A stretch of DNA of 54,356 bases, taken from the IMG/VR virus record IMGVR_UViG_3300035670_000272, positions 1 through 54,356 of that record; one strand, given 5' to 3'. Both the position numbers and the translations under genes were made by a program. Of this stretch, positions 1,224-44,387 are shown one piece after another. Numbering within the stretch: position 1 is the stretch's first letter; each line of letters opens with the position of its first letter. Below the pieces are notes generated by a model. It searched no databases. It was not told where the DNA came from and saw only the letters and a list, made by a program, of their open reading frames with translations. The stretch comes from a virus (taxonomy: Duplodnaviria > Caudoviricetes).

Positions 1224-1231
1224 GTTTCTCT

Positions 1232-15645: not shown

Positions 15646-16575
15646 GTGCGTTGGCTTGTTACTGGCGGTGCGGGCTACATCGGTTCTCACGTGCTGCGCT
15701 CGCTCATCGCGGCAGGCCACGATGCGGTCGTCATCGACAACCTATCGAACGGTAACAGGAGGCGCGTACCTCCGACTGTCAGGTTCGTCGACGGCGACAT
15801 ACGGGACGGCGACCTGCTGCTCGACGCTATCGAGGATGTCGATGGCGTTATTCATCTCGCGGGTCTGAAGTCGGTAGCCGAATCTGTAGATAAGCCGCTC
15901 GCCTATTACGACACGAACGTCACCGGGACACTCAGCGTCCTCCGCGCGATGCGTTACCGGAACGTGTGCCGCATCCTGTTCTCTAGCACCGCGTCCCTGT
16001 ACGCGCCAAGCGATCTCCCGATCAAGGAGATCAACGCGACCTACCTGTCGTCTCCGTATGCGGCAAGTAAGTTCATGGCGGAACGGCTCATCGCCGATAA
16101 TGCGCGAGCGACAGGTGGCGAGTACGCGATCCTGCGTTACTTCAACGTCGCTGGTGCCGTGTCACCCGATCTGCGCGACGACTCGCAAGACAACCTGCTG
16201 CCGCGACTGACGCGCGCGCTCCGCAACGGTGAAGCGCCGGAGATCTTCGGTGACGACTACCCGACGCGGGACGGGACATGCGTGAGGGATTACGTCCATG
16301 TGGCTGATATCGCCGACGCGCACGTTCTCGTCGCTGAACGGCTCGGCCAACTGGACGAGCAGGTCTACAACGTCGGCACAGGACGCGGCGTAACGGTTCG
16401 CGAGATGGTGTCTGCCGCGAGCCGCGCTGTCGGATGGCAGATCGCGCCCGTCATTCGGGACCGCAGGCCGGGAGATAGCGCTTCGACGATCGCGGACGTT
16501 ACGCGCATCGAGAAGGAACTAGGGTTCAAGGCAAAGTTCGACATCGAGCAGATCGTGGAGTGCGTGAAAGATTAG
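15646..16575 (+). CDS. galE: UDP-glucose 4-epimerase
   Basis: TGGAGYIGSH, SVAESV..PL.YY, YAASK, LRYFNVAGA, PTRDGTCVRDYVHV. Confidence 0.9.
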   Translation: MRWLVTGGAGYIGSHVLRSLIAAGHDAVVIDNLSNGNRRRVPPTVRFVDGDIRDGDLLLDAIEDVDGVIHLAGLKSVAESVDKPLAYYDTNVTGTLSVLRAMRYRNVCRILFSSTASLYAPSDLPIKEINATYLSSPYAASKFMAERLIADNARATGGEYAILRYFNVAGAVSPDLRDDSQDNLLPRLTRALRNGEAPEIFGDDYPTRDGTCVRDYVHVADIADAHVLVAERLGQLDEQVYNVGTGRGVTVREMVSAASRAVGWQIAPVIRDRRPGDSASTIADVTRIEKELGFKAKFDIEQIVECVKD

Positions 16576-22255: not shown

Positions 22256-23311
22256 ATGTCGGATCTTAGCGTCGCGTTCATCAGCGGTGACTGGAACAAT
22301 CAGTCAGATCCGCCAGAACCTAACGGATGCGCCTACTATCGCCAGGTGCTCCCCTGCCAACTGCTTCAGGAGCAGGGTATCGACGCGCTGGTGGGGCAGC
22401 CGCGACCGCACGAACCGATGGGCATTGGTCTCGCCAAGGACGACGGCGCGTTATTCGGGTTCGACATTAACGTCTACAAACTCATGATGCACGCGAGCGT
22501 CCCACAACTGTTCCGTACGATGCAGTCGAAAGGCCAGACGGTCGCTATCGACATTGACGACTTTCATTTCGATCTGCATGAAGAGAACATCGCGTATGCG
22601 GCGACGAACCCACACACCAACCCGACTAATAACAGGATGTGGTACGAGATCGGGATTCGGCAGGCCGACTTCATCACCGTATCGACCGCGTTCCTAGCAG
22701 ACTTCTATGGTCGGCGCTGCCGCGATGTACGCCTCGTCAGGAACGCCGTCGAGACTGACCGCTTCATGCCGGTCGAGCAGCCAGAGTCGCCGACGTTCGG
22801 GTGGCTCGGCGGGACACTCTGGCGTTCTGGCGATATCGAGTTGCTGAACGAGTGGCTGCCGGGCTTCGTGAAACAACACAAGATCAAGGTCCAGCACGCC
22901 GGGCACATCCCCGGCGACCCTAAGCACTTCGCCGTACGCGCGGGGTTGAAGCGTGTCGAGACGACGCCGATGCAGACGATCAGTAACGTGCCGAAGATGA
23001 TGACGTTCCATGTCGGGCTAGTCCCGCTCGCCCGTAACGGCTTCAATGAGGCTAAGAGTTACCTGAAGGGTCTGGAGTACGCGGCTGCTGGCATCCCGTT
23101 CATTGCTACCCCGACAGAGGAATACAGGGTCCTAGCGGCTGCGGGAGTCGGGAGGCTGGCGTCGTCCCCGGATGAGTGGATTGACCACGCTACGGCGCTC
23201 CTAGACCCGTCTACGCGCATCGCAGAGGCCGAACGGAACCGGGCCATCGTCAAGGAGCAGTTCGATATCTCGGGAATGGGGCAGGTATGGGCTACCGCGA
23301 TCACTTCCTGA
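22256..23311 (+). CDS. Glycosyltransferase (GT-B, GT4-like)
   Basis: DIDDFHF, GLVPL...FNEAKSYLKGLEYAAAGIP. Confidence 0.85.
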   Translation: MSDLSVAFISGDWNNQSDPPEPNGCAYYRQVLPCQLLQEQGIDALVGQPRPHEPMGIGLAKDDGALFGFDINVYKLMMHASVPQLFRTMQSKGQTVAIDIDDFHFDLHEENIAYAATNPHTNPTNNRMWYEIGIRQADFITVSTAFLADFYGRRCRDVRLVRNAVETDRFMPVEQPESPTFGWLGGTLWRSGDIELLNEWLPGFVKQHKIKVQHAGHIPGDPKHFAVRAGLKRVETTPMQTISNVPKMMTFHVGLVPLARNGFNEAKSYLKGLEYAAAGIPFIATPTEEYRVLAAAGVGRLASSPDEWIDHATALLDPSTRIAEAERNRAIVKEQFDISGMGQVWATAITS

Positions 23312-24825: not shown

Positions 24826-25839
24826 TTAGATAGCCAGCCACTCGGGATGAGCCAGCGTCCACTTGATCGTTCTCTCCAAAGACTCTTCCAGCGACAGCGG
24901 GGCCGACCACCCAGCGGCGGCAATCTTCGACCCATCCAGCGCGTAACGCAGATCGTGTCCCGGGCGCGACGAGTGAAAGTCCACCAGTTCGTAACGCAGA
25001 GGCTTACCGATGTAGGCGGCGATCAACTCCGCCATCTCTAGGTTGCTCATCTCCCGTTCCCCCACGACATGCCACTTCGCGGGAGCACGCCGCTCCGCAT
25101 ACGTCGGCGCATCCTCACCCAACGCGAACAGCAACGCGTCCGCTTGATTCCGCGCGTGCAGGTAGAACCGGGAACCAACATGACCCGTAGCCGAAGCATG
25201 AATCGGGACAGTCTCCCCAGCGAGAATCCGCTTCATCACCATCGGCACAAACTTCTCAGGGTCCTGCGACTCCCCAATAATGTTCATCGTGTTCGTGATA
25301 ATCACCGGCACCCCATAGGTACGCCAGTACGAGTAAGCGATCGACTCCTGAGCAGCCTTACTAGCCGAATAAGGATTCGACGGGTAATACTGATCGACCC
25401 ATTCCCGGTGAGCAGTACCCGCAGGAGCAGGCCCATACACCTCATCCGTCGAAACATGCAGGAACCGCTCAACCGGGTAAGACCGCGCATAGTCCAGCAT
25501 GTTCGTCACAAGAGCAACGTTATTCTGGATGAACGCGGCAGGCTCCGCGATACTCCGATCCACGTGCGACTCAGATGCCACATTCAGGACGTAGTCGATA
25601 CCGCCTATCTCCGATGCCAGGACAGGGGACACAGGAGCGGTCAAGTCGTGAGTGATAACACGCGTCCGCGTGTAGGACCCATCCACGCCACCAACCGCCA
25701 GCCGAATCCGGTCCGTAAGCCCACGGTGGCGGAAACTCACGAGGCAGACTACCTCGTAGTCTGTCGTGGTGAGTAGGTGCCGCAGGACATGGGAGCCTAC
25801 GAAGCCGCTCGCCCCGGTGAGGAGGACACGCTTGCTCAT
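24826..25839 (-). CDS. rmlB: dTDP-glucose 4,6-dehydratase
   Basis: ASESHVDRSI, HVSTDEVYG, PYSASKA, RPGHDLRYALD. Confidence 0.85.
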   Translation of the reverse strand: MSKRVLLTGASGFVGSHVLRHLLTTTDYEVVCLVSFRHRGLTDRIRLAVGGVDGSYTRTRVITHDLTAPVSPVLASEIGGIDYVLNVASESHVDRSIAEPAAFIQNNVALVTNMLDYARSYPVERFLHVSTDEVYGPAPAGTAHREWVDQYYPSNPYSASKAAQESIAYSYWRTYGVPVIITNTMNIIGESQDPEKFVPMVMKRILAGETVPIHASATGHVGSRFYLHARNQADALLFALGEDAPTYAERRAPAKWHVVGEREMSNLEMAELIAAYIGKPLRYELVDFHSSRPGHDLRYALDGSKIAAAGWSAPLSLEESLERTIKWTLAHPEWLAI

Positions 25840-25840
25840 G

Positions 25841-27409
25841 TCAGATCCATCCACTCGTCTGAGTAATGCTCAGCGGAGGCGCGAGCATCGGTTCTTTACT
25901 TGGTGGCTCGAATAACGCCAACAGTATCGCCTCGGCACGGTCAGGGCTGCTAACGCCACGCCGCTTCATATCGGCTTTCGCTTCGATCTGGATGCGTCCG
26001 CTGCTGTTGGAACGGTACGTGGGTGCCGTCAGTTGCGCGATCTCCTTCTTGCCTACCGCGAGCGACAACTCTTGCCTGCCGTCTTCGTCTGGCTGGATGA
26101 GCGTGCGCATGTTCCACCACATCTCGGCACGCTGATTAGCGAACTTGCCGTTATCGTACGCGCGTTCGGCCACGTTCACGGCGACGATCTCTGCGTTATG
26201 CCGGGACTCCTTGCCCCATTCGTCGAGGATGCTGGCGACGCCCCAGCCGACGCCGATGCTGTCGATCTTCACACGTACGGCTTCCTGTACGCCGTGGAGC
26301 GCGTGGTACTCCTGCGCTTTGTGGATCTCGCTGAGTACCTGACCGGCGACCGTGACCGCGTTATCGTTATGGCTGGATGCGTGTTGCACATACGCGCACA
26401 TGCCGTCTGCTCGCGCGATCACGAACTCGTCTCCGCCATCTGCCGCGACATCGACCCCGATACGGACGCGCCCGACCCCTGCCGGTTCTGCGACTACGGC
26501 GGATTCCAGCCAGTCGATAGGCAGCGTGACGTTCGTGGTGGTGCGCGGGAAGCGCGCGTGAACGCGTGCCTGAACGAACGGGGACTCCGCACCGAACTCG
26601 CGGATAACGTCCCGCACCCAGGTCTCGTCAACCAGGTTCTTGGCCCAATCCCCCACGGGCTCGCCTGTGAAGTTGGGTGTGGAGTAGGCGTCGATGGGGA
26701 TGGTGTTGTAGAGATCGCTGTTGCAGGCTCTCTCGAACCATGACCCGACGTTATCTGTCGGAGGGTTACCGAGCAGTAGCAGACGAGTGTGCCCACCGGT
26801 CATCAGCGCTTCGAGAGCGTTACCGATGATGGGGCTGATGCCTCCGGCTTCATCGACGACGATGAGCAGATTGTCTGAGTGGATACCCTGAACCGCTGTC
26901 TCATTATGGTCAGCCGGGGAGAACCCATCGGCGACAACGATGTCGTTGATCTTCCATTCGGTCGTGAGGACTTCGCCGGGAAGATGGTGGGCCGTATGCA
27001 GCCTGCGGATATGGGGCCAGAGGATTCCCCGCACCTGACGGAACGTGGTCGCTGTCGTCACGACACGGACCTTCTCGGCGGGGTGTACGGCGCACCACCA
27101 AGCGATAGCGCGTGCCGCGATGTGTGACTTTCCGGGCGCGTGGCATGCGGGGACGGCTGTGCGCTTATTGTCGCGCACCGAGTTCAGGATCTCTACCTGC
27201 TTGCTCCATACGTCTTCGCCGAGGCCATCGGTCACGAAAGCGACGGGATCGTTGCGGTAGCGCGCCCACTTAGGGTCCACGCCTTCGCGCAGTTCGTTCA
27301 CTAACGCCAGCAGTCCTGCTTCGGACATACGTTCGAGTGTCGCTAACGCTTTCTCCGCTGGTGCGTCACGGAGAATCTGCTCAGGCGTCATCCTCGTCAT
27401 CCGTGTCAT
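25841..27409 (-). CDS. terL: Terminase large subunit
   Basis: Walker A HAPGKS, Walker B LLIVVDEA, LGNP, nuclease IGVDVA and SPDRAEA. Confidence 0.9.
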   Translation of the reverse strand: MTRMTRMTPEQILRDAPAEKALATLERMSEAGLLALVNELREGVDPKWARYRNDPVAFVTDGLGEDVWSKQVEILNSVRDNKRTAVPACHAPGKSHIAARAIAWWCAVHPAEKVRVVTTATTFRQVRGILWPHIRRLHTAHHLPGEVLTTEWKINDIVVADGFSPADHNETAVQGIHSDNLLIVVDEAGGISPIIGNALEALMTGGHTRLLLLGNPPTDNVGSWFERACNSDLYNTIPIDAYSTPNFTGEPVGDWAKNLVDETWVRDVIREFGAESPFVQARVHARFPRTTTNVTLPIDWLESAVVAEPAGVGRVRIGVDVAADGGDEFVIARADGMCAYVQHASSHNDNAVTVAGQVLSEIHKAQEYHALHGVQEAVRVKIDSIGVGWGVASILDEWGKESRHNAEIVAVNVAERAYDNGKFANQRAEMWWNMRTLIQPDEDGRQELSLAVGKKEIAQLTAPTYRSNSSGRIQIEAKADMKRRGVSSPDRAEAILLALFEPPSKEPMLAPPLSITQTSGWI

Positions 27410-27857
27410 TGAACCCTAGGAGACTGCTGATCTCCTCGATCAGTTCGTCGCGTGTCACCTCGACCTGAATCGGTCCGCTGTTCGGTCCCGACAGTTCGGT
27501 TCTGATCTGCCTGCCGAAGTGCTGCGGCGCGGTCCTTTCAAGGAACCATCCTGCGGCCTGCCAGTTCGTCTGCGCGGCCTGCTGAATGATGCCGACGTTA
27601 CGGACGATCGCCGCTGCCCTGGCGGTATCGACCTCTTCGCTGAAGTGCGCGTAACGCTGTTCGGTCTCGTCGAGATCTTCCCCGGCTTCCCGCTTCTGCC
27701 TCGCGGCATCGCCCTTCTTCAACCAGTTGTAGAGCGTCGCCCGTGAGATACCTGCGTAGGTAGCGGCGTGTTCCACGTAGTTGCCGAGACGTAACGCGCC
27801 GATGATCCGGTCGTGTGTCTCGTCGGTGAGCAGAAGCGAAGTACGCTTGCCCGGCAT
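27381..27857 (-). CDS. terS: Terminase small subunit
   Basis: HTH GISRATLYNW, WQAAGWFLER, ELSGPNSGPIQV; adjacent to TerL. Confidence 0.8.
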   Translation of the reverse strand: MPGKRTSLLLTDETHDRIIGALRLGNYVEHAATYAGISRATLYNWLKKGDAARQKREAGEDLDETEQRYAHFSEEVDTARAAAIVRNVGIIQQAAQTNWQAAGWFLERTAPQHFGRQIRTELSGPNSGPIQVEVTRDELIEEISSLLGFNDTDDEDDA

Positions 27858-28948: not shown

Positions 28949-29692
28949 TTACCTCCTAGGGTTCAGCAACTTCACTTCGAGATAACCGTCCGGTCTGCGC
29001 TTGCTGATACGCACGTACTGAGGCCATTCGCTCAGCAGATAGTGGACATCTCGCTCGTTCTCCTCTGTTCTGTCGTGATTCTGCGAACCTCCTGACCCGC
29101 TACGCATCGGAGCGGCTTTGGCGCACATCATGTCGAACCGGATTACTTCACCATCGGCGACATAACGCATGAGTGACTTCTCGTAGTCTTGCTTGTAGTT
29201 GAGGCGCATGGTCTCTGAACGCCGGTTCAGGAAACCGTGGAGGTGCCCGATGCAGAAGAGCAGTCCGCTGTTGATGCGGGGCTTCATGAAGTAAGCGTTA
29301 GCGACCGGGTAGACGCCCCACATCGTGGCACTCCCGCGAGCCATGATCCTGAACGTGTCGGCGAATGTCTTGTCGAGATCGCTGACCGTCGCTAGGTCAG
29401 ATCCGTTGAGCATCTGAACGGCGAGAATGTCGTCGTCTAGTTCCACGATGGGAGTGTTCTCGTCGTAGTAACGGTTGATGGCGTTGCGGTTATTGGCGAG
29501 CCCCGTGCCGCCTGTCTCGATCGCGCCGTACAGAGAATCGTCCACTTGGTCGCGGTACTGCTGTTCCTGCCCTGGCGTGACGAACACGCGAATCTTCTCG
29601 GCGGGTACGCCCCCATCGCGCAGGCACTTCAGCGTCCGCTCGGTTAACTGTTGTGGCCGCGCGTGGCTGACGATCGCTACCTCGTAGGTCAC
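28949..29692 (-). CDS. TET-associated glycosyltransferase (TAGT/GREB1-like)
   Basis: IVSHAR, RNAI, ELDDDI, WGVYPVANAYFM, KQDYEKSL; directly downstream of the TET/JBP gene. Confidence 0.75.
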   Translation of the reverse strand: MTYEVAIVSHARPQQLTERTLKCLRDGGVPAEKIRVFVTPGQEQQYRDQVDDSLYGAIETGGTGLANNRNAINRYYDENTPIVELDDDILAVQMLNGSDLATVSDLDKTFADTFRIMARGSATMWGVYPVANAYFMKPRINSGLLFCIGHLHGFLNRRSETMRLNYKQDYEKSLMRYVADGEVIRFDMMCAKAAPMRSGSGGSQNHDRTEENERDVHYLLSEWPQYVRISKRRPDGYLEVKLLNPRR

Positions 29693-30594
29693 TTCGCCTT
29701 TCCCGTCATTCCCTTCATCTTGCTAATGCTCTTCGCCATCTCCTCCGTAACGAACGGGCGCTCTCCGCGAATCGCAGAAGCCATGTTGTCCTCGCGCTCG
29801 GTCCGCGTCTCCTGAGCCCTGGCTGTCTCGATCGCGTAAGTGAAGCAGTCCTTCATCCCGCGCAACGCGTAATACACGACGCTGTAACGGTAGCCGTCCT
29901 TCGCGGTCTGCGTCATGGGAGTGACGCCATGAACGAGGCGGTAGCCGCAGAAGTAGAGCGCGTAACCGTCACGGGCGGCGCAAGTGACATCGTATTCGGG
30001 GATGTGCAGATACCCGCCAGTAACATTCCTGCGGAGGACCGGCATCGCCGACCATGTATCGAAGTTGAATCCGTCGCGGTGATACGGGAGGGTGCTTGTC
30101 TTGTTGATGACGCCGCTAGTCCAGAGCGCATCTTTCGCCATACGCCAGTCGTCCGCGACCTCGATAATGGTGCGCTCGTCGCGGTCGTGAACCTCCGGGA
30201 ACACCTCACGCAACTGGTCCGCCAACGCGTACGCTGTCGTGACGATAACGGTATGTGCCTCGGGCTCTTCCTGAGCGAGCGTGTAGGGGCGGCAGGAATC
30301 CCGCTGTGCGAGCGGCTTACGCGGCGACATGCCGAACGTCCGCGACACGTTAGTCATACCGCTGCCGGTGCGGACAGTCTTCCCGTACTTCACCTTCAGA
30401 ACGGCGCGACGCAGGTGACTGATCGTGTCCCGCTCCAACGGCAGATAAGCGAACACCGGCTCGTTTGTTTCCGCGTCGGCGATAACGCACGCTTCCGTTA
30501 TGTTCGGTTCGATTTCCGGTACGGTCTCGCCTAGGTACTTGTCGGCTTCTTGCTTGTCGAGTACCCGTTCACGCTTCAGGATTCGATATTCCAT
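29689..30594 (-). CDS. TET/JBP-family 2-oxoglutarate/Fe(II) dioxygenase
   Basis: HxD (YHRDGFN), distal His (VHGVTP), RxS (YRYSVVYY). Confidence 0.8.
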   Translation of the reverse strand: MEYRILKRERVLDKQEADKYLGETVPEIEPNITEACVIADAETNEPVFAYLPLERDTISHLRRAVLKVKYGKTVRTGSGMTNVSRTFGMSPRKPLAQRDSCRPYTLAQEEPEAHTVIVTTAYALADQLREVFPEVHDRDERTIIEVADDWRMAKDALWTSGVINKTSTLPYHRDGFNFDTWSAMPVLRRNVTGGYLHIPEYDVTCAARDGYALYFCGYRLVHGVTPMTQTAKDGYRYSVVYYALRGMKDCFTYAIETARAQETRTEREDNMASAIRGERPFVTEEMAKSISKMKGMTGKAK

Positions 30595-38267: not shown

Positions 38268-38612
38268 TCACGACAGGATCTCTTCCTGCTCGATCGCGGA
38301 CTCGCACAGATTGCAGCCGAACCACCAGCGCGGGTACGCCAGGAGATCCTGCCGCGAGATACCGCACCAGCGGCAGTCGCCGAAGTCGTCGAAGACGGGC
38401 GACGCGGCATCCTGCTTGATGTATTCCAGAGCCGCGCTGAGTGTCGGCTCGGTGCGGAGCGGAGAGTAGTACGTCCCGCCGTACTTACGAACGTGGATGC
38501 TGAAGGCATTTACCTGTAAGCCCTCGCGCAGCCACGGGTCGCGGTCGATGTAAACCGTGTAGCGATCGTCGCTGCACTCCCAGCGGTCCTCGCTCACTCG
38601 TCGTAGTTCCAT
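38268..38612 (-). CDS. Hypothetical protein with C-terminal zinc ribbon
   Basis: GAAGGG RBS; CRWC...CNLC. Confidence 0.6.
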   Translation of the reverse strand: MELRRVSEDRWECSDDRYTVYIDRDPWLREGLQVNAFSIHVRKYGGTYYSPLRTEPTLSAALEYIKQDAASPVFDDFGDCRWCGISRQDLLAYPRWWFGCNLCESAIEQEEILS

Positions 38613-38657
38613 GCGAATACCCTTCTCTCGTAGGCTAACGATCGCTAGCCAAGGCGA

Positions 38658-38690
38658 GGCAGGAGGGAAAGGGAAGGGAACCCTCCTGCC
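38658..38690 (-). terminator. Hairpin downstream of the DUF932 gene
   Basis: GGCAGGAGGG / CCCTCCTGCC 10-bp stem with a 13-nt loop. Confidence 0.6.
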
Positions 38691-38706
38691 CCACGTTGGT
38701 GAGCGA

Positions 38707-39705
38707 TCACGCAGATAGCAGCGAGTACGCCTTCTGCTTGATCGGTTCGACAGCGCCCAGGAAGACGCGCTCGGCGCGCGCAACATCAGCGTCGCGCTTG
38801 CCTGCCTTCACGGGCTTCACCCAGTCAGCCCACTCGGTGATGGCGTTGAACGCTGCCCAGCGAGTTCCGGCGACGTTATGCTGGGTCGGGGCGAGCCAAA
38901 GACCGGCAACCTGCTCGCGGGTCTCCTCGACGCGCATCATCTGGAGGCTGCTCATGTCCTTACGCATCGGGAACAACTTCTCCGTGAACGTGTCGAACTC
39001 ACGGCGCGACATCTCCTGCGACACGAGTTCATCAACCGCAGTCTGGAACGCGTCGGCGTAATCGACGACGAGCCCCATCGCCTCGCGCGCCTGCTGGATC
39101 TTGCCGCGAATGTTGGTCGTGTGCTTCATCGACCACTTGCTGACCGCGCTCTGCAGACCGAACTGAACGGTGTTCGCGCAGACAGGCCGGACCGCAGTGA
39201 CGAACGCGGTGAAAGCCTTGCTCCCGTCGTGGCTAGTTGAGCAGACGAGGTACAGGTCTACGGTGTCCTGCCCTCCGGCGATGCTGATGTGCTGCGGCAT
39301 CTTCATGGATACGAACACCTGAGTCCCGCCGCGCAGGGAACCGGCAGTCTCGAAGACCGCGCCGGACTCGTCAACGAGAGTGTTCAGGAAGTCGAACGCT
39401 TCCTTGTTCTGGATGACGGTGTATTGCGATCCGACGACACCGAGACCTTGGAGTCCCAACTTCGGGTGGTCGCGGTAAGTCATGAAGCGATCGGGCGCGC
39501 TCACCATAACGACGCCGTTCTCGGTGAGTACCGGGGTCTGGACCGGATCGTCGGACTTCACGACCTCCCAATCCAACTGCGAGAGCCGGAGCGCGTCCTC
39601 AACTGTCTGCGCGCCGTCCGTGATAACGCCTAGGTGATGCCAGGGAACCTCGCGGTTGCTGAAGAACGCGGCGCTCCCGTCTTTGAATGTCTCTACTGCG
39701 TGCAT
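38707..39705 (-). CDS. DUF932 / phage-plasmid-like protein (TIGR03299-like)
   Basis: PWHHLG, L.WEV, LGVVG..Y..IQN.EAF, FETAGSL.GG, SHDGS, RPVCANT, HT; ATG at 39705. Confidence 0.85.
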   Translation of the reverse strand: MHAVETFKDGSAAFFSNREVPWHHLGVITDGAQTVEDALRLSQLDWEVVKSDDPVQTPVLTENGVVMVSAPDRFMTYRDHPKLGLQGLGVVGSQYTVIQNKEAFDFLNTLVDESGAVFETAGSLRGGTQVFVSMKMPQHISIAGGQDTVDLYLVCSTSHDGSKAFTAFVTAVRPVCANTVQFGLQSAVSKWSMKHTTNIRGKIQQAREAMGLVVDYADAFQTAVDELVSQEMSRREFDTFTEKLFPMRKDMSSLQMMRVEETREQVAGLWLAPTQHNVAGTRWAAFNAITEWADWVKPVKAGKRDADVARAERVFLGAVEPIKQKAYSLLSA

Positions 39706-39732
39706 GTGCGTACCCTTCCGGTTAGGTCTGAC

Positions 39733-39783
39733 GATCTCGTCAGCGGCACTATTCAGCACCGGACCCCTCTCGGGGTTTCGATC
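39733..39783 (-). ncRNA. Type II hammerhead ribozyme HHR1
   Basis: GATC-GAAA-CCCC GAGA GGGG-TC^-CGGTGCT GAAT AGTGCCG-CTGACGA-GATC; predicted cleavage after 39762. Confidence 0.85.
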
Positions 39784-39965
39784 TAGTCAGTACGTTGATC
39801 GCAAGCGTGGCGAACCTTGAAGATCGGTCCGTCAGCCGCGAGTTCTGCGAGGCGTCGCATCCCCTCTTCGGTCGCGATGTTGATTGCCTCATATTCGGCA
39901 ATCGTTATTGGCTTGTATTTCTCAGCAGAAGACGTAGACAGTTCCGTCGAAGTCTCCATCGTCAT
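39783..39965 (-). CDS. Hypothetical protein
   Basis: GAGGAGG RBS; its TAG overlaps HHR1. Confidence 0.55.
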   Translation of the reverse strand: MTMETSTELSTSSAEKYKPITIAEYEAINIATEEGMRRLAELAADGPIFKVRHACDQRTD

Positions 39966-40194
39966 CCTCCTCGGGGTCGTGAATCTGATACTCGTCGTGG
40001 TAGTCGTCCCACTTAGCGGTCATTTCGTGAACGTTGTTCTCAATGAAGCGGTATCCGAGCCGCGTCTGCCAGTAATCAGCAGAGGCAGCGCTGAACAGGA
40101 TCGGCTTGTCGAGATCCGGCAGCGCATAAAGCGCGTCGATAAGTTCCCGAACCGTGAGTGTTGCCTTGTTCGCTTCGACATTCGTCGTTGCCAT
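39922..40194 (-). CDS. Hypothetical acidic protein
   Basis: GGAGG RBS; LTVRELIDAL..L pattern. Confidence 0.65.
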   Translation of the reverse strand: MATTNVEANKATLTVRELIDALYALPDLDKPILFSAASADYWQTRLGYRFIENNVHEMTAKWDDYHDEYQIHDPEEDDDGDFDGTVYVFC

Positions 40195-40298
40195 TACCGC
40201 ATACCTCCCTCAACCCATCCCGCGATCCCCATGAACGCGAGCATTACTAGTGTGAAGAGTGTTGCTGCGGCGATCTCGCCGCGTTGCGTGAGCCTCAC
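40194..40298 (-). CDS. Small single-TM peptide (34 aa, not in ORF track)
   Basis: GTG; RLTQRGEIAAATLFTLVMLAFMGIAGWVEGG; GAGGAGG RBS. Confidence 0.55.
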   Translation of the reverse strand: MRLTQRGEIAAATLFTLVMLAFMGIAGWVEGGMR

Positions 40299-40504
40299 GA
40301 TGCCTCCTCTGTCGGCGTGATCGGTGCCCCGAGCCATTCCTCAACGGCTTTGATGTGGAATAACTCGGGTGCGTTACTGAACTGCGTGATCTGAATGTGC
40401 TGAAGCGGGTCCCACCCGATCCGTTCCAACTCGTTCAGGGTGTTCCTGAGCGAGAAGATCGTCGGTCGGCGCAGGATGTAACCCGTCTGCAATCTTTCGA
40501 TCAT
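40295..40504 (-). CDS. Hypothetical protein
   Basis: First ORF after HHR2; GGAAGGGGAAG RBS. Confidence 0.65.
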   Translation of the reverse strand: MIERLQTGYILRRPTIFSLRNTLNELERIGWDPLQHIQITQFSNAPELFHIKAVEEWLGAPITPTEEAS

Positions 40505-40526
40505 GCGCTTCCCCTTCCGTTAGCCT

Positions 40527-40583
40527 GTCTCTTCAGGCGTAGGAGGCTATCCCTACGCGACCCCGGCGAACCGGGGTTTCGAC
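40527..40583 (-). ncRNA. Type II hammerhead ribozyme HHR2
   Basis: GTC-GAAA-CCCCGG TTCG CCGGGG-TC^-GCGTAGG GATAGCCT CCTACGC-CTGAAGA-GAC; tail AGGCTA pairs with loop TAGCCT; cleavage after 40559. Confidence 0.92.
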
Positions 40584-40867
40584 TAGAACGGCGGAGCGGA
40601 CTTTTCTCTGGCGGATTCCTCTCCGGCCTCCCAACCTTTCGACCAGCCGCGATCGAACTCGGCGAACTCGGCGTCCCAAATGAGTTCACGGATCTTCTGA
40701 AGGCTCTCCTTGTCTACCCCCAACTCGCGGAAGTAGTGGATGAGCGCGTGGTACATGACGCGGCTCTCGTTCGAGGCACCCTTGGTCGGGTACTGCTCAA
40801 CGAAGCGCCACGCGCCAGCGATAGCCATGTCGATCGTCTCGGTCAGCGGCGTGCGTGTCTCTGTCAT
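40583..40867 (-). CDS. Hypothetical protein
   Basis: GAAAGGGAAG RBS; MTETRTPLTE...; its TAG overlaps HHR2. Confidence 0.65.
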   Translation of the reverse strand: MTETRTPLTETIDMAIAGAWRFVEQYPTKGASNESRVMYHALIHYFRELGVDKESLQKIRELIWDAEFAEFDRGWSKGWEAGEESAREKSAPPF

Positions 40868-40889
40868 TGGCTTCCCTTTCGTCTCGCCT

Positions 40890-40942
40890 GTCTCTTCAGC
40901 GCCAGGAGGCGAACCCTGACGGACCCCTCTCGGGGTTTCGAC
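40890..40942 (-). ncRNA. Type II hammerhead ribozyme HHR3
   Basis: GTC-GAAA-CCCC GAGA GGGG-TC^-CGTCAGG GTTCGCCT CCTGGCG-CTGAAGA-GAC; tail AGGCGA pairs with TCGCCT; cleavage after 40922. Confidence 0.92.
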
Positions 40943-41244
40943 TAGTCGCGCGTCGCGTAGATACGGATGACGCGGCGCTCGCCGTACTCGTTCTCGTTGC
41001 CGTACTCGTAGGACCAGATCTCCGTGTCGCCGAAGTGGTCTACCTCGACTGCCTCGGGGTTGCTCTCTAGTGCCTTCAGGATCTTGTTGAGCCGGATCTT
41101 GACGGTGCGGTCGCTCACCGGCGTGTAGTGATTGACTTCGCCGTGCTCTGGCGCGGCGTAGGTGCCGCCGCAACCGCAGGCGCATCCGGTCTTGCCGCAG
41201 TACGTCTTCTGGATGTTCTTGAATGAGATACCGATGGTGGTCAT
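40942..41244 (-). CDS. Hypothetical protein with YCGKTGCACGCGG motif
   Basis: GAAAGGGAAG RBS; its TAG overlaps HHR3. Confidence 0.7.
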   Translation of the reverse strand: MTTIGISFKNIQKTYCGKTGCACGCGGTYAAPEHGEVNHYTPVSDRTVKIRLNKILKALESNPEAVEVDHFGDTEIWSYEYGNENEYGERRVIRIYATRD

Positions 41245-41267
41245 GTGCTTCCCTTTCGTCTGGCCCT

Positions 41268-41322
41268 GTCTCGTCAGCGGTAGGCGGGCAGTTCTACCGG
41301 ACCCCGTTTCCGGGGTTTCGAC
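41268..41322 (-). ncRNA. Type II hammerhead ribozyme HHR4
   Basis: GTC-GAAA-CCCCG GAAA CGGGG-TC^-CGGTAG AACTGCCCGC CTACCG-CTGACGA-GAC; tail GGGC pairs with GCCC; cleavage after 41300. Confidence 0.92.
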
Positions 41323-41606
41323 TAATAGCCGAGTCGCTTCAGGTCAGCGTTCGCATACTTGCCGAGAACGCGCGACGTTGCCGCGACGTAGGTGTGTCCG
41401 TGAATGTCGGTCTTGATAACCGGGTCGGTGTACACGACCTGAGCGTTGATCGCGTTCACGAGTCGCTGCGCGGTTCGCTTGTTACGCAGGACGTAGCCGT
41501 GGGTGCTTGGCCTATCGACTGGCGCATCCCAGGTTGAGTAGACGCGCCACTCGCCACCGGGATCGTCGTCTGTCTCGCACTCGTACATATCGGCTCGGAC
41601 CTTCAT
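41322..41606 (-). CDS. Hypothetical protein
   Basis: GAAAGGGAAG RBS; its TAG overlaps HHR4. Confidence 0.7.
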   Translation of the reverse strand: MKVRADMYECETDDDPGGEWRVYSTWDAPVDRPSTHGYVLRNKRTAQRLVNAINAQVVYTDPVIKTDIHGHTYVAATSRVLGKYANADLKRLGY

Positions 41607-41628
41607 GTGCTTCCCTTTCGTTACACCT

Positions 41629-41681
41629 GTCTCGTCAGCACGGGTCGGTGATTTCCCGTGGACCCCTCTCGGGGTTTCGAC
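41629..41681 (-). ncRNA. Type II hammerhead ribozyme HHR5
   Basis: GTC-GAAA-CCCC GAGA GGGG-TC^-CACGGG AAATCACCGA CCCGTG-CTGACGA-GAC; tail GGTG pairs with CACC; cleavage after 41661. Confidence 0.92.
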
Positions 41682-41884
41682 TATTCAGCACCGCACTCGC
41701 AGCCTCGCTTGTTGCAGCGGTTGGGCGCGGCCTGCCGGAAGACCCGCTCGCCGCAGAGCGAGCAGCAGGTCATCGCGGCGATGCAGGACTTCTGTTCGGT
41801 CGGGCAAGTGATGACCCGTACCCATGCGCCGTACTCGTTGCGGTACTCGAAGTCCAGCGTATGCAGGTTGGTCGCGGTCATCAT
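41681..41884 (-). CDS. Cys-rich hypothetical protein
   Basis: ATGA overlap with the upstream ORF; its TAG overlaps HHR5. Confidence 0.55.
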   Translation of the reverse strand: MMTATNLHTLDFEYRNEYGAWVRVITCPTEQKSCIAAMTCCSLCGERVFRQAAPNRCNKRGCECGAE

Positions 41885-42165
41885 GCCGTCACCGACCGTG
41901 TATCGAACGCGAACATGACCGCGTACTGGGCATCTGTCTTCGTTCGGCAAGTCGCTATCACGGCACCGTTGATGATCGCGTCCCAGGAGCCGACATCGTT
42001 CGGCTGGACCGATGCCGCGATGGGTCGGTTGTCGCGACCAATGACGTCGTAGCCGTACACGGCGATCAGTCGCTTGCCACGACGCTCGGTGCGCATCAGG
42101 TAGCCGCGCCAGATCAGGTCGCCGTACTTGTCGGTCTTCGGCTGAAGTTCAGCAAGAAGGCTCAT
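41881..42165 (-). CDS. Hypothetical protein
   Basis: GAAAGGGAAG RBS; MSLLAELQPK... Confidence 0.65.
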   Translation of the reverse strand: MSLLAELQPKTDKYGDLIWRGYLMRTERRGKRLIAVYGYDVIGRDNRPIAASVQPNDVGSWDAIINGAVIATCRTKTDAQYAVMFAFDTRSVTA

Positions 42166-42190
42166 TGTTCTTCCCTTTCGTTGGTCGCCT

Positions 42191-42243
42191 GTCTCTTCAG
42201 GTGCGGGAGGCGATCTCCGCACGACCCCTCGCGGGGTTTCGAC
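42191..42243 (-). ncRNA. Type II hammerhead ribozyme HHR6
   Basis: GTC-GAAA-CCCC GCGA GGGG-TC^-GTGCGG AGATCGCCTC CCGCAC-CTGAAGA-GAC; tail AGGCGA pairs with TCGCCT; cleavage after 42223. Confidence 0.92.
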
Positions 42244-42494
42244 TAGGAGTTGCTTCGGATAGGCTCGGCCATCTCCGGGTAGATCATCGCGGCGTACTCC
42301 TTCGCTTGCCGCAGCGTCGCGAACTGCTCTCCCAGCGGCTGCTCGTGCCAGTAGCCGCGACCGTCGCGGTACTGCGACACAAGCGCGTAGCCGGAGCGAC
42401 CATCGCGGTGGTCCATTCGGATGACGAACTTCTCTCCGCTATCACGTGAGAACTCGTAGCGGTACTCGAAGCCGTTCTTGATCCACATGTCCAT
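42243..42494 (-). CDS. Hypothetical protein
   Basis: GAAAGGGAAG RBS; FATLRQAKEYA; its TAG overlaps HHR6. Confidence 0.7.
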   Translation of the reverse strand: MDMWIKNGFEYRYEFSRDSGEKFVIRMDHRDGRSGYALVSQYRDGRGYWHEQPLGEQFATLRQAKEYAAMIYPEMAEPIRSNS

Positions 42495-42518
42495 CGTTCT
42501 TCCCTTTCTTCTTGACCT

Positions 42519-42573
42519 GTCTCTTCAGGCACGGTAGGTCAGTTCCGCGCGACCCGCCGAAGCGGGTTTCGAC
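42519..42573 (-). ncRNA. Type II hammerhead ribozyme HHR7
   Basis: GTC-GAAA-CCCGC TTCG GCGGG-TC^-GCGCGG AACTGACCTA CCGTGC-CTGAAGA-GAC; tail AGGTCA pairs with TGACCT; cleavage after 42551. Confidence 0.92.
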
Positions 42574-42848
42574 TAACGCACGATCGACGCGTCGGCCCAA
42601 GTAGCGCTCTCCGTGATGCGCCCGGTGGCGTTACCGATGGAATTCTGGATGCCGAGGCGGATCTCGTGGATCGTCTCGCCGTCCGCCTTTGAGTAGTCGT
42701 AGCAGCGGTCGGTGCGGAACTCCATGTTGATCTCGTCTGACTCGGCGATAGCGTCCGCGAGCAGACGCACAAGCCGAGCGGCTTCCTTGCGGTTCATCGT
42801 GAAGTAAGCGACGTTCCGGTCGGTCATGGCGGTGTATGTCGTGGCCAT
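42573..42848 (-). CDS. Hypothetical protein
   Basis: GAAAGGGAAGG RBS; its TAG overlaps HHR7. Confidence 0.7.
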   Translation of the reverse strand: MATTYTAMTDRNVAYFTMNRKEAARLVRLLADAIAESDEINMEFRTDRCYDYSKADGETIHEIRLGIQNSIGNATGRITESATWADASIVR

Positions 42849-42870
42849 TGTGTTTCCTTCCCTTTCGCGT

Positions 42871-42929
42871 GTCTCTTCAGCGTTAGGACGCGACCCCTAA
42901 CGGACCTCCCCCGAAGGGGAGGTTTCGAC
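42871..42929 (-). ncRNA. Type II hammerhead ribozyme HHR8
   Basis: GTC-GAAA-CCTCCCC TTCG GGGGAGG-TC^-CGTTAGG GGTCGCGT CCTAACG-CTGAAGA-GAC; tail ACGCGA pairs with TCGCGT; cleavage after 42903. Confidence 0.92.
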
Positions 42930-43355
42930 TGGGAAGTCAACTGTCGCTTAGGGTTACTGCGGCTCGTCTTGCCCCACTTCCCGCCCTGCCGCTTGCTCTG
43001 ACGCGTTACGCGGTGATCGCATCGCAACATCGGGCGCTGGTGAGGTAGGTCCCTTCCGGGTCTCCCCTCGCACGGATCGGGCTGGTTCACTAGGCGGTTC
43101 CGGTCGCGCGCTGGCCCTTCTCTGCTCAGCCATTCGCCGGAGGCGGTGCCCCGATCCGCTCTTCAGTTGTAGCACGATCTTACCGTGTCAGACGGTAGTT
43201 CGGGGACTTTTGAGGAAACTAATTTGGGCGAGTTTCCGGGGTCAGAATCCAGGCCCCCACCAGGCCCCCGCCCAAGGGTCCTAGACGCTTACAGGTCGAT
43301 ACAGGTCGATCCAGGGGCAGCCCTACGCGGGTCGGCTCCGGGAAGCCCGATCGCG

Positions 43356-43363
43356 TGTAGAAT
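43356..43363 (+). promoter_or_regulatory. Candidate -10 element (TAGAAT) for the tail operon
   Basis: GTGTAGAAT in the divergent intergenic region upstream of the tail genes. Confidence 0.45.
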
Positions 43364-43455
43364 GGTGGGAGCAACGTGTCCATCCGTGACCCCGCTCTCG
43401 CCGTGGCTCGCGTGGCCCCAGGGAAGCCGGGGTTGCCGTGCGCCCAGGGAGCGGA

Positions 43456-43668
43456 ATGGCTTCGTACCGAGTCCTCGTAGGAATCGACTACGCAGGGAAG
43501 CGCGCTGAGGCTGGCGCTATCGTTAATGACCTACCCGCGAAGAGCGTTACTTGGCTGCTCGCGCAGAACCTCATCGAGACCGTAGATAACGCTTCAGACG
43601 ATCAGCCTGTAACACCAAAGACTACTGCTGCGCGTGAGCCAAAGTCTCCCAGCAAGGGAGGCGAATGA
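43456..43668 (+). CDS. Small protein preceding the tail tube genes
   Basis: MASYRVLVGIDY...WLL.Q.LIE; AGGGAG RBS. Confidence 0.65.
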   Translation: MASYRVLVGIDYAGKRAEAGAIVNDLPAKSVTWLLAQNLIETVDNASDDQPVTPKTTAAREPKSPSKGGE

Positions 43669-44387
43669 TGCCCACATTCCGTCACGGTAAGCGCACCGTA
43701 GTTCTGCTGAACGGGACCGACATGTCCCCGTTCTTGAATGAGGCTACGCAGACCCAGGAGATCGAGACTGCGGAGACTACGACCTTCGCGGATACGGACA
43801 AGACGTACATTACGGGACTAGGCGACGGGACGATCTCTACGAGCGGCCTCTTCGACGGAACCGCTAACGCTTCTAACGATGTCCTCACGGGCGCTATCGG
43901 GCAGGAAGATAACACCTTCACGGTGCTGCCGGAGGGCGCTACTGCCGGCGCGAGAAGCATCATCGCTAACGGCCAACTCACCTCCTACGAGGTCTCCTCA
44001 CCGGTCGGCGATGTTGTCGCTATCTCGGCAGAAGTTCAGGCCGATGGAGGGCTGTTCTCCGGGCGCGCTCTGAACGCTCTCACCAACACCGGAACTTCGG
44101 CATCGCTGACCGCTATCAACGACGGCGCAGCGACCGATGGTGGAGGCCTCTTCAACCTTCACGTTACGGCGAATACGCGCGACGGCGCATCCACCGTCAA
44201 GGTCCAGCACTCAGCGGATAACGCAACCTGGGCGGACCTCGTCATATTCTCTTCCGTTAGCGCGAGCAGCACGGCGGGAGAGAGCATCACCAGCACGGGC
44301 ACGGTGAATCAGTATCTCCGTGCAACGCACACCCTCGCCGGATCGTCCGGCTCCATCACCTACCACGTTTCGGCAGCAAGGAGATAA
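43665..44387 (+). CDS. Tail tube-like protein, long paralogue with C-terminal extension
   Basis: N-terminal half strongly similar to the 44390..44818 product. Confidence 0.75.
   Translation: MMPTFRHGKRTVVLLNGTDMSPFLNEATQTQEIETAETTTFADTDKTYITGLGDGTISTSGLFDGTANASNDVLTGAIGQEDNTFTVLPEGATAGARSIIANGQLTSYEVSSPVGDVVAISAEVQADGGLFSGRALNALTNTGTSASLTAINDGAATDGGGLFNLHVTANTRDGASTVKVQHSADNATWADLVIFSSVSASSTAGESITSTGTVNQYLRATHTLAGSSGSITYHVSAARR

Follow-up and report, generated by a model that had tools for sequence, protein, structure and literature searches.

The 54-kb genome of this uncultured phage (the window, i.e., the whole stretch of 54,356 nucleotides analyzed) carries on its − strand, between 42930 and 39725, eight type II hammerhead ribozymes, interspersed with genes (Table 1). 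Each has the order stem II 5′ strand, GAAA, stem III hairpin, GUC, stem I hairpin, CUGA(A/C)GA, and stem II 3′ strand. All were found at the places and in the arrangement given by an earlier note made from the letters alone, and the C17 positions that we computed are identical to the eight cleavage positions it had named. The core nucleotides are invariant in all eight copies (CUGANGA, GAA, A15.1-U16.1, C17, and G10.1-C11.1). Stem II is GUC/GAC in seven of them and has 4 bp (GAUC/GAUC) in HHR8; the note had recognized this variant but attributed it to HHR1, whereas it belongs to the copy at 39784-39725, the last in transcription order. In the array copies, loop I also pairs with the 3′ tail in a pseudoknot of 4 to 6 bp (4 pairs in three of the eight), a feature absent from the earlier description. 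In seven cases the ribozyme begins on the TAG stop codon of the gene before it, the G of TAG being the outermost base of stem II; HHR1 has CAG directly before it and no stop codon.

The − strand genes have GC3 values of 0.57 to 0.87, and their differences from relatives are distributed 326/275/992 by codon position, which supports the − strand as the sense strand, as had been claimed, and the sense orientation of the ribozymes with the genes. Twelve genes are served by the eight ribozymes, gene L being the last. Four boundaries (C/D, H/I, I/J, and J/K) have none, so the claim of a hammerhead at nearly every gene boundary was overstated. Genes C and D (41681..42165) meet in a ribozyme-free ATGA overlap, and H-I-J-K form a block of four genes that overlap or abut, likewise uninterrupted by any ribozyme. 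The three named clusters among the 13 related to gene F are all annotated as “hypothetical protein.” Directly after gene L there is an imperfect hairpin (minimum free energy of −56.7 kcal/mol for 131 nt, z of −3.7), with no U-run after it, which may be a 3′-end or processing signal closing the ribozyme-punctuated unit. A 73-codon open reading frame in the leader was rejected as a gene, as it has no coding signature (GC by codon position of 0.76/0.62/0.61; differences from relatives of 8/9/10, with 36 gaps). The sole PHROG “RNA ligase” label in the phage was also rejected, since Pfam identifies an XkdF-type protease, and no ligase gene was found by PHROG/Pfam annotation.

Table 1. Features of the array, in transcription order. 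RF02276, Rfam Hammerhead_II (gathering score, 37 bits); R1, covariance model built from the eight copies.
Feature	Coordinates	Strand	Description	Basis
Non-coding leader	42931..43175	−	Upstream of HHR1	
HHR1	42863..42930	−	In non-coding leader; predicted cut after C at 42903; stem III 8 bp with UUCG loop; pseudoknot 6 bp	RF02276 44.8 bits (above gathering); R1 67.9 bits
Gene A	42573..42848	−	91 aa; no known family	GC3 0.84
HHR2	42511..42574	−	Predicted cut after 42551; starts on stop of gene A	RF02276 31.6 bits (below gathering); R1 67.8 bits; 6-bp pseudoknot in register
Gene B	42243..42494	−	83 aa; no known family	
HHR3	42183..42244	−	Predicted cut after 42223; starts on stop of gene B	RF02276 31.0 bits (below gathering); R1 81.9 bits
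Gene C	42165-41881	−	94 aa	
Gene D	41884-41681	−	67 aa; Cys-rich	
HHR4	41621..41682	−	Predicted cut after 41661; starts on stop of gene D; pseudoknot 4 bp	RF02276 30.8 bits (below gathering); R1 79.3 bits
Gene E	41322..41606	−	94 aa	
HHR5	41259..41323	−	Predicted cut after 41300; starts on stop of gene E; pseudoknot 4 bp	Unreported by Rfam; R1 70.1 bits; core and helices intact
Gene F	40942..41244	−	100 aa	Relatives in 13 protein clusters
HHR6	40882..40943	−	Predicted cut after 40922; starts on stop of gene F	RF02276 39.8 bits (above gathering); R1 81.7 bits
Gene G	40583..40867	−	94 aa	Only match DUF6892, sub-threshold
HHR7	40519..40584	−	Predicted cut after 40559; starts on stop of gene G	RF02276 43.7 bits (above gathering); R1 73.7 bits
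Genes H, I, J, K	39783..40504	−	69 aa, 34 aa (hydrophobic), 90 aa, and 60 aa	
HHR8	39725..39784	−	Predicted cut after 39762; starts on stop of gene K; upstream of DUF932 gene; 4-bp stem II variant	Unreported by Rfam; R1 52.9 bits
Gene L	38707..39705	−	332 aa; DUF932 (PF06067)/phrog_1221	Pfam 2.6e-63; PHROG 5.7e-99
Imperfect long hairpin	38638..38712	−	Directly after gene L stop	

Covariance models and folding

The window contains 10 occurrences of the motif CTGANGAGA, where 2.46 would be expected (none of 100 shuffles reached 10), and eight of them are the hammerhead elements. The covariance model R1 retrieved exactly those eight, with 52.9 to 81.9 bits, and no further copy in the 54-kb genome, where the next best match had 11.8 bits. 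In the alignment of the eight copies, 95.6% of the cells are paired, and double changes occur in 11 of the 20 pairs; neither value was reached in any of 500 shuffles, and slid controls were 33 to 46% paired. With five related contigs added to the window, the alignment grew to 40 copies (36 distinct), of which 94.8% of the cells are paired (slid controls, 34 to 47%), with double changes in 15 of 20 pairs and a covariation score of 0.534 versus 0.168 when shuffled (0/500). Covariation extends to all five helices, stem II and the pseudoknot among them. Across the 40 copies, from six genomes, the conserved core positions show no substitution except the allowed variants at N7 and H17.

The Rfam model, which had been suggested as a check, agreed in part. 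Overall, three of the eight copies scored above gathering and three below, and two were missed: two exceeded the gathering score in the whole-window scan, three exceeded it and two fell below it in a 7-kb scan, and six were found at E ≤ 1 in the genome search, while the elements at 41323 and 39784 went unreported in all three. Core, topology, and helices are those of RF02276, but stem II has 3 to 4 bp versus the two annotated pairs of the model, and the pseudoknot, an interaction beyond the scoring of a covariance model, shapes the stem I loops. The invariant core, the covariation in all helices, and the Rfam matches together strongly support the type II identity that the earlier note had proposed.

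Plain folds recovered stems I and III in all eight copies. For HHR8, whose variant is found at the same place in all five related contigs, the plain fold favors a rival 6-bp hairpin that sequesters the catalytic core, although folding without pseudoknot energies overrates such hairpins. The tail of HHR8 has three possible pairing partners, i.e., loop I, the catalytic core (6 bp), and CUGAC just upstream of the stop codon, and all three options are conserved in the five relatives. Rapid cleavage has been shown to depend on the type II pseudoknot, and shortening it from 6 to 4 pairs cost ca. 20-fold in rate in the construct used (Perreault et al. 2011, PLoS Comput Biol, PMC3088659). The 4-pair pseudoknots of three array copies and the core-sequestering fold of HHR8 count against full activity.

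The array in other viruses

The array is kept in all five relatives having a gene L of at least 65% identity (8, 8, 8, and 5 copies, and 3 at a contig end), with different genes between the ribozymes. Among the four closely related genomes with eight ribozymes each, members of the gene A family lie behind ribozyme 1 in two, whereas in the other two, which have an extra cassette, they lie behind ribozyme 2. The ribozymes travel with the upstream gene: in 21 of 23 pairs with the same upstream and a different downstream gene, the 3′ half of the ribozyme keeps a similarity of ≥0.85, against only one of nine pairs with a different upstream and the same downstream gene, the pairs coming from four related genomes and thus being non-independent. 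Nucleotide homology between the genomes breaks at or within ca. 30 nt of the ribozymes, with one break at the ribozyme-free start of gene D.

A search of viral sequences for similar arrays, also suggested beforehand, did find them, with eight to nine copies on unrelated viral contigs. The wider-class pattern search covered 80 viral loci of at least 130 stretches and gave 86 unique matches, 82 of them with a Shine-Dalgarno-like block within 45 nt; 27 of the 86 start on TAG, and 93% of those 27 terminate a reading frame that has stayed open for 40 codons or more. None of five cultured phages sharing the capsid or gene L at 38 to 57% identity carries any copy, so the array is dispensable for this phage type in general.

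Predicted processing of the leftward RNA

A conserved ribosome-binding block, with the sequence GAAAGGGAAG or nearly so, lies after each ribozyme and precedes ATG, and the distance from the predicted cut to this ATG is 54 to 57 nt in all eight cases. The predicted cleavage products are seven RNAs of 352, 328, 562, 361, 378, 363, and 797 nt, in which stem I forms the 5′ terminus and stem III the 3′ terminus. The best explanation, which we consider likely and which agrees with the role proposed in the earlier note, is that eight active sense-strand ribozymes cut the leftward RNA, presumably an early transcript from one promoter, into separate messages. A sigma-70 consensus scan found no promoter, and a single transcript is thus only assumed; none of the RNA runs searched for the array sequence contains a match.

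Each ribozyme would be a 3′-terminal appendage of the preceding gene that folds during leftward transcription, through stem III, stem I, a stem II of 3 to 4 bp, and the 4- to 6-bp pseudoknot, and then cleaves itself after GUC. Cleavage would strip the non-coding leader and release the seven RNAs plus the downstream DUF932 message, and the products should separate at once because they are joined by nothing but stem II, which is short and nearly constant. The released RNAs would begin with a 5′-OH directly on the closed stem I hairpin, giving a standard 5′ untranslated region, and end with the stem III hairpin (GNRA or UUCG loop) and a 2′,3′-cyclic phosphate, 20 to 28 nt past the stop codon. In Bacillus, the 5′-OH end that results from glmS ribozyme cleavage marks the RNA for degradation, so that stabilization of the released RNAs is not a given. 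As for translation, the predicted accessibility of the ribosome-binding block is higher in the cleaved than in the uncleaved form in six of the eight copies, by 0.03 to 0.23, i.e., nearly alike, and a benefit is not evident from folding.

The ca. 80-nt blocks of ribozyme plus ribosome-binding site could instead act at the DNA level, as homology patches for swapping cassettes (ribosome-binding site, gene, and ribozyme) between co-infecting phages, with RNA cleavage being secondary or only making new neighbor combinations expressible. The changing genes and constant ribozyme number in the four related genomes, the shifting gene A family, the location of the homology breaks, and the similarity that follows the upstream gene all fit such a role. 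So does the distribution of variation, with the variable helices all inside one cleavage product and the joining helix nearly constant, by which chimeras would stay functional. However, a patch could do without a pseudoknot, an intact catalytic core, and compensation in four helices, and the maintenance of all these means that selection acts on the RNA. Besides the non-independence of the pair counts, the coincidence of breaks with conserved blocks is partly a truism of scoring where homology ends, and the break at gene D has no ribozyme. On balance, we regard this reading as unlikely.

Regulated or deliberately slow copies, whose partial or conditional cleavage would set the ratio of mono- to polycistronic RNAs and the dosage of small proteins, seem improbable. 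They would match the different pseudoknot lengths and the conserved pairing options of the HHR8 tail, and regulated cleavage has been suggested for some phage hammerheads (PMC3088659), but the copies lack any domain for sensing or for binding a ligand, the differences might be neutral, and the rival hairpins are overrated by the folding. We give even less credence to ligation of the ends, with circular single-gene RNAs or spliced products as the outcome, whether a host RtcB-type ligase or the hammerhead reaction run in reverse does the joining. The end chemistry established for hammerheads (5′-OH and 2′,3′-cyclic phosphate) is the correct one, and the constant stem II would let a 3′ half and the 5′ half of the next ribozyme rebuild a whole hammerhead in a circle, heterologous halves being compatible wherever stem II is GUC/GAC. 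Retrozymes and viroid-like RNAs use hammerheads likewise (PMC7761336), and Perreault et al. raised the possibility, but neither spliced nor circular products were detected when sought from prophage clusters (data not shown in that paper; PMC3088659). Moreover, a stem II of 3 bp offers ligation little support when it has to close a loop of 300 nt, and the phage has no ligase gene that we could find. Finally, that the copies are non-functional repeats (REP-like elements or terminators), hammerhead-like by chance or decay, is hardly credible: although activity here is predicted and only three copies pass the Rfam gathering score, the unsubstituted core and the compensatory changes speak against it, as do the lack of U-runs after the hairpins and a terminator scan that gave 3 hits versus 4.3 expected, none at any ribozyme.

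Precedents and proposed insulation

The hint in the earlier note that a hammerhead-punctuated phage operon might be undescribed is not supported. Perreault et al. described multiple hammerheads flanking individual prophage genes and proposed processing into single-gene mRNAs; three tandem arrangements were cleaved at all sites in vitro and one in vivo, those tested being tandem or triple and from Clostridium scindens, Azorhizobium caulinodans, and Agrobacterium tumefaciens (PMC3088659). Like the array, the prophage clusters are type II with a loop I/3′-tail pseudoknot, consist of close copies flanking single genes or short blocks of varying identity, and have the same proposed role on long phage transcripts. 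Since the arrangement was already described in phages in 2011, the present array is a clean, large example and not a new kind of thing, differing in having eight consecutive ribozymes and in belonging to a complete uncultured phage with a capsid nearest those of actinobacterial phages. Stop codon fusion, fixed start distance, and upstream-gene linkage are not among the features that the relevant passages of that paper describe. In Desulfovibrio vulgaris, three type II hammerheads, also adjoining hypothetical and phage-like genes but at three separate chromosomal loci, cleave in cells as seen by cyPhyRNA-seq (PMC8782182), in vivo proof that the class cleaves. The sequence between two hammerhead cuts would have circularizable ends here as in retrozymes and viroid-like circular RNAs (PMC7761336), but those are eukaryotic, type I or type III, and replicate or retrotranspose, while the array needs no circle. 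Upstream-gene linkage and cassette-like exchange are possibly the only new points.

In mitochondrial tRNA punctuation, structured RNAs at gene boundaries are cut in trans by RNase P and RNase Z (protein and RNA enzymes); the array would similarly mark boundaries for cutting a long transcript, but here the mark would cut itself. In the RiboJ-type insulators of synthetic biology, a hammerhead before the ribosome-binding site trims the 5′ untranslated region to a fixed, hairpin-started end and makes expression independent of upstream context, as HHR1 in the leader would do here. RiboJ is an engineered derivative of a plant satellite hammerhead with another topology and is deployed as a single copy, whereas the array is natural, type II, and serial and would in addition fix the 3′ terminus of the message before each element. 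The likely benefit of processing into single messages would be insulation, each small gene receiving the same structured ends and ribosome-binding context whatever its neighbors, which would suit a region of gene swapping between related phages.

Eight hammerheads of the type II permutation

The record is complete (54,356 bp, direct terminal repeats, 59.2% G+C), and its genes include those for tail, capsid and terminase. Eight elements on its - strand, from 42930 to 39725 (HHR1 to HHR8 in order of transcription), follow one plan: A-G, UC (or AUC in HHR8), GAAAC, one hairpin, GUC, another hairpin, CUGA(A/C)GA, GAC (or GAUC in HHR8) and a brief tail. Numbered as a hammerhead, the plan corresponds to the 3' side of stem II, G12-A14, stem III, C17, stem I, C3-A9 and the 5' side of stem II, and the type II permutation can be read directly from the sequence, with loops closing stems I and III and stem II open to the flanks. 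The core (C3 U4 G5 A6 N7 G8 A9, G12 A13 A14, A15.1-U16.1 and H17) is intact in 8/8 copies, N7 being A or C and H17 being C. Across 40 copies from six genomes, the sole core variation is at N7, where all four bases are found, and in one copy with U at H17, which the hammerhead consensus allows. Of ten occurrences of the motif CTGANGAGA in the window, eight are the ribozyme elements; 2.46 were expected, and none of 100 shuffles had as many as ten. A covariance model built from the eight window copies (R1), scored at every position of the window, recovered exactly these eight at 52.9 to 81.9 bits, the next best position scoring 11.8 bits.

The Rfam model Hammerhead_II (RF02276, gathering score 37 bits), which the earlier note had named as a check, gave a divided answer: three of the eight copies scored above gathering (44.8, 43.7 and 39.8 bits), but another three fell below it (31.6, 31.0 and 30.8), and the two at 41323 and 39784 were never reported, whether in the whole-window, the 7-kb or the genome search. 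The whole-window scan returned two copies (44.8 and 39.8 bits), the 7-kb scan three above gathering and two below, and the genome search six at E<=1. Within its clan, Rfam places the matches in Hammerhead_II.

The paired structure is supported by covariation. In the alignment of the eight window copies, 95.6% of cells are paired and 11 of the 20 pairs have changed on both sides, values that none of 500 shuffles reached; sliding the partner by 1 to 3 columns lowered pairing to 33 to 46%. A larger alignment of 40 copies (eight from the window and 32 from five related contigs, 36 distinct) was 94.8% paired, with double changes in 15 of 20 pairs and a covariation score of 0.534 against 0.168 when shuffled (0/500), although it was fitted to the nested structure of its own model and is thus biased towards it, the pseudoknot lying outside the model. 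Compensated variation was present in all five helices of the 40 copies, stem II included. Stems I, II and III were 100% paired, except for the inner columns of stem III (94.4%), and double changes were found in 5/6, 2/3 and 3/5 of their pairs, respectively.

One helix had escaped the earlier note. The 3' tail just past stem II pairs with loop I over 4 to 6 pairs, in one register in all eight copies, with double changes in five of six pairs and 84.7 to 87.5% of cells paired. It is the same helix as in the type II hammerheads of Perreault et al. 2011, who reported the pseudoknot for most of them and showed it to be a requirement for fast cleavage (PMC3088659). Plain minimum-energy folds recovered stems I and III in 8/8 copies. 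In HHR8, the pseudoknot has 4 pairs and competes with other pairings: its 3' tail GUCAG (region 39725-39800, - strand) has three possible partners, namely loop I, with which it forms the active pseudoknot of 4 bp, the catalytic core, in a 6-bp hairpin that plain minimum-energy folding prefers, and a CUGAC just 5' of the TAG, pairing with which would add 5 bp to stem II across a 2-nt bulge. All three partners are kept in 5/5 relatives (L142-L146), even with a different upstream gene; one relative has U for C, with a wobble pair retained.

On these sequence criteria, we regard the membership of the eight elements in the type II hammerhead class as established, short of a cleavage assay. The core, the covariation and R1 bear out the identification made in the earlier note, and the cut sites that it gave (42903, 42551, 42223, 41661, 41300, 40922, 40559 and 39762) are the C17 positions that we computed.

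Gene setting and predicted messages

The ribozymes lie on the coding strand of a run of small genes (A to K), eight copies within 3.2 kb, followed by gene L, which codes for a DUF932 protein. For genes A-L, GC3 on the - strand is 0.57 to 0.87 against about 0.6 for shadow ORFs on the + strand, and differences from the relatives at codon positions 1, 2 and 3 number 326, 275 and 992. In seven of the eight cases, the TAG stop codon of the preceding gene is the start of the ribozyme; the first ribozyme sits in the leader and not on a stop codon. A leader ORF of 73 codons (43175-42954) was considered as a gene and rejected, as it had no coding signature. On the 3' side of every ribozyme come a conserved block of purines (GAAAGGGAAG, in some cases slightly varied) and an ATG, which places the predicted cut 54 to 57 nt before a start codon in 8/8 cases. 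The stretches bounded by ribozymes are five single genes, one pair (C/D, with an ATGA overlap) and one four-gene block (H-K); the pair and the block being undivided, four gene boundaries are without a ribozyme. Among the small genes, 10 of 11 had no PHROG family, and gene F had one marginal match; its protein has 13 related clusters, the three with a name being "hypothetical protein"; none of the small proteins was above the Pfam cut-off.

The last ribozyme precedes the DUF932 gene, and a long hairpin after the stop codon of this gene is the end of the ribozyme-punctuated stretch. The ribosome-binding site of the next gene follows the hairpin, which lacks a U-run and could serve as a terminator lacking the U-tract, as a site for RNase III or to stabilise the 3' end. 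Further down the - strand come genes for a MerR-like DNA-binding protein, a Rad52-type annealing protein and a PD-(D/E)XK nuclease, and then a replication initiator, RusA, an HNH nuclease, a TET/JBP-like protein with a glycosyltransferase, and the terminase, while tail genes occupy the + strand from 43665 onward. With non-structural genes running leftward and tail genes rightward, the ribozyme region seems to open a leftward operon of non-structural genes, and from this gene content we infer that it is probably early. A sigma-70 consensus scan of 38500-43700 found no promoter-like sites, and a terminator scan of the same region gave three candidates where 4.3 were expected, all of them away from the ribozymes. 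A search for RNA data sets covering 39600-43100 found none. Between the ribozyme operon and the tail genes, two short tandem direct repeats in non-coding DNA may act as operators or be associated with a promoter. Just 5' of the leader ribozyme (42931-42945, - strand), a CUUCCC is complementary to the GGGAAG of the downstream ribosome-binding site (42853-42862); the two could form a helix around the uncut ribozyme that would mask the ribosome-binding site until cleavage. The CUUCCC is kept in the three closest relatives, as is the whole leader.

If all sites self-cleave, the leader would be discarded and RNAs of 352, 328, 562, 361, 378, 363 and 797 nt released, together with the DUF932 message. 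In the type II geometry, the upstream product would keep stem III and the downstream product stem I, the core and the pseudoknot tail. Each message would then finish in a G+C-rich hairpin, 20 to 28 nt beyond the stop codon, that has a GNRA or UUCG loop and carries a cyclic phosphate, and the next would start as a closed hairpin with a 5'-OH. Stem II (3 to 4 bp) alone joins the products, so they should part at once. Judging by bacterial RNA decay in general, ends of this kind should impede 3' exonucleases, and also RNase E and RNase J where these depend on the 5' end. The glmS ribozyme in Bacillus, by contrast, leaves a 5'-OH that invites RNase J1, and thus the terminal hairpin may be the part that matters. 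A cut placed 3' of the stop codon would avoid non-stop messages, and the leader ribozyme would equip the first message, too, with the standard 5' end, a role that we liken to that of the synthetic RiboJ insulators, which standardise the 5' end of a message. Folding gave no clear gain in accessibility of the ribosome-binding site when cleaved and uncleaved forms were compared.

Elsewhere in the genome, the gene with a queuine tRNA-ribosyltransferase label has a TET/JBP oxygenase match below the Pfam threshold, and its neighbour belongs to the TET-associated glycosyltransferase family, above the Pfam cut-off; the two suggest cytosine hypermodification of the phage DNA. The load of sugar-modifying genes is unusual, with three nucleotide-sugar epimerase-like, three glycosyltransferase-like and one sulfotransferase. 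The terminase genes (-) are apart from those for portal, capsid and tail (+). An "RNA ligase" PHROG label at 12104-14194 was rejected, the Pfam assignment being an XkdF-type protease.

Features of the phage genome outside the ribozymes, with their positions in the window
Feature	Position	Strand	Remarks
Sugar-modifying genes	387-5010, 15646-16575, 22256-23311, 24826-25854		scattered among structural genes
Small and large terminase genes	25841-27857	-	far end of the leftward non-structural block
PHROG queuine tRNA-ribosyltransferase label; Pfam TET/JBP oxygenase, sub-threshold	28949-30594	-	29.7 bits, cut-off 34.9
Imperfect hairpin, 26 pairs	38638-38712	-	directly 3' of the DUF932 gene stop; z -3.7
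Tandem direct repeat	43245-43275	read on -	G-rich unit of ~10 nt, x2
Tandem direct repeat	43291-43310	read on -	10-nt unit, x2

Relatives, possible cassettes and wider occurrence

With the DUF932 protein as query, viral contigs yielded 36 loci. The five with 65 to 94% identity all carry ribozymes upstream of the gene (8, 8, 8, 5 and 3 copies, the locus with three lying beside a contig end). The other 31 (<=32% identity) had no R1 match, and Rfam found none in 18 of them; since these distant loci lack ribozymes, gene L is not generally tied to them. The window and its three closest genomes have eight ribozymes each, with different genes between. The gene A family, for instance, comes after ribozyme 1 in two genomes and after ribozyme 2 in the other two, where there is an extra cassette. 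The cassette map of the six related genomes has conserved ribozymes with variable gene families between them, and nucleotide homology between genomes breaks at or near the ribozymes.

What the ribozyme travels with can be judged from cross-genome pairs, counted in four related genomes and thus not independent of each other. Where the upstream gene is the same and the downstream gene different, 21 of 23 pairs keep a similarity of >=0.85 over stem I and tail; where the upstream gene differs and the downstream gene is the same, one of nine does. This suggests that the ribozyme goes with the gene before it, in cassettes of ribosome-binding site, gene and ribozyme, and such linkage fits the fusion to the stop codon. 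Reassortment of ribozyme halves inside the ribozyme was also considered and mostly rejected, because the whole ribozyme follows the upstream gene. The variable helices are all inside one predicted product and the shared helix is nearly constant, so that, if the ribozyme belongs to, and moves with, the preceding gene, any cassette could stand beside any other and still be excised with standard ends. That the cassette (ribosome-binding block, small gene and stop-fused hammerhead) is the unit of both expression and evolution, in a natural plug-and-play array, is a tentative proposal that we consider possible but rather doubtful. It likens the array to integron cassettes at the DNA level and to RiboJ insulators at the RNA level.

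Beyond these relatives, a pattern for the ribozyme subtype matched at least 130 stretches of viral contigs, and R1, applied to 78 of the 80 loci taken with their flanks, gave 147 matches. Among the matches listed, one unrelated viral contig has at least eight copies in ~3 kb, another at least nine in ~6.5 kb, and several more have four to six. Six unrelated array-bearing loci (49 to 65% G+C) had no tblastx match and no protein similarity to the window. A Shine-Dalgarno-like block follows within 45 nt in 82 of the 86 unique pattern matches listed (80 loci). Of the 86, 27 began on a TAG, and 93% of these TAGs were the stop of an open frame of 40 codons or more. Up to and including the first G of stem II, the three bases were AGG in 31 of the listed matches, TAG in 27 and AAG in 12; with AGG and AAG common, an A before stem II is frequent even without a stop codon.

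The earlier note had also proposed a search of phage databases for similar arrays. Viral contigs carry them, but megablast of the region and blastn of one ribozyme with its ribosome-binding site found no match among 50,697 phage records. The nearest capsids (52 to 57%) are those of Arthrobacter and Microbacterium phages. R1 found no copies in any of five cultured phages (Sonali, Mufasa8, Ottawa, ValentiniPuff and Jace) related through capsid (52 to 57%) or gene L (38 to 41%). A gene L scan of genome contigs gave just five distant loci, at 30 to 35% identity, in unrelated MAGs.

Relation to known hammerhead clusters

The array had been put forward as possibly undescribed in phages, and this did not hold: Perreault et al. 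2011, with whom the record of type II hammerheads from nature begins and who also reported their pseudoknot, already describe such clusters (PMC3088659). As in their prophage clusters, several close hammerheads flank single genes or short blocks on the sense strand, and the identities of the genes between them vary across relatives. Three tandem arrangements were reported there to cleave at all sites in vitro, and the Agrobacterium one in E. coli; circular or spliced products were sought there and not found (PMC3088659). Cleavage in Desulfovibrio cells is reported for type II hammerheads close to phage-like genes (PMC8782182), and a 2026 paper takes it that DNA bacteriophage hammerheads have been described before (PMC13725137). 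The idea of mRNA processing recurs in a 2019 review, which calls the biological role of bacterial ribozymes, including bacterial and phage hammerheads, largely elusive (PMC6765202). Splitting into separate messages is the accepted hypothesis for such clusters, and applies here as a proposed function. Our literature search, the coverage of which misses many journals, gave no paper on arrays in actinobacterial phages or on linkage of a ribozyme to its upstream gene, and no later paper on phage hammerhead arrays.

The array is thus a large and very regular example of a known phenomenon and not a new one, and it leaves the view of the nature and distribution of hammerheads as it was. New points may be the stop-codon fusion, the constant spacing and the evidence that a ribozyme is inherited with its upstream gene, with few and related genomes behind them. 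If cassettes do move as units, phages could trade, and at once express, small genes for host takeover or anti-defence. Eight copies, stop-codon fusion, a spacing of 54 to 57 nt and five related genomes with changing genes make the array a clean test bed, suited to asking whether self-cleavage insulates, stabilises or doses phage messages, and it also prompts one to ask whether genes with a ribozyme tag travel as cassettes.
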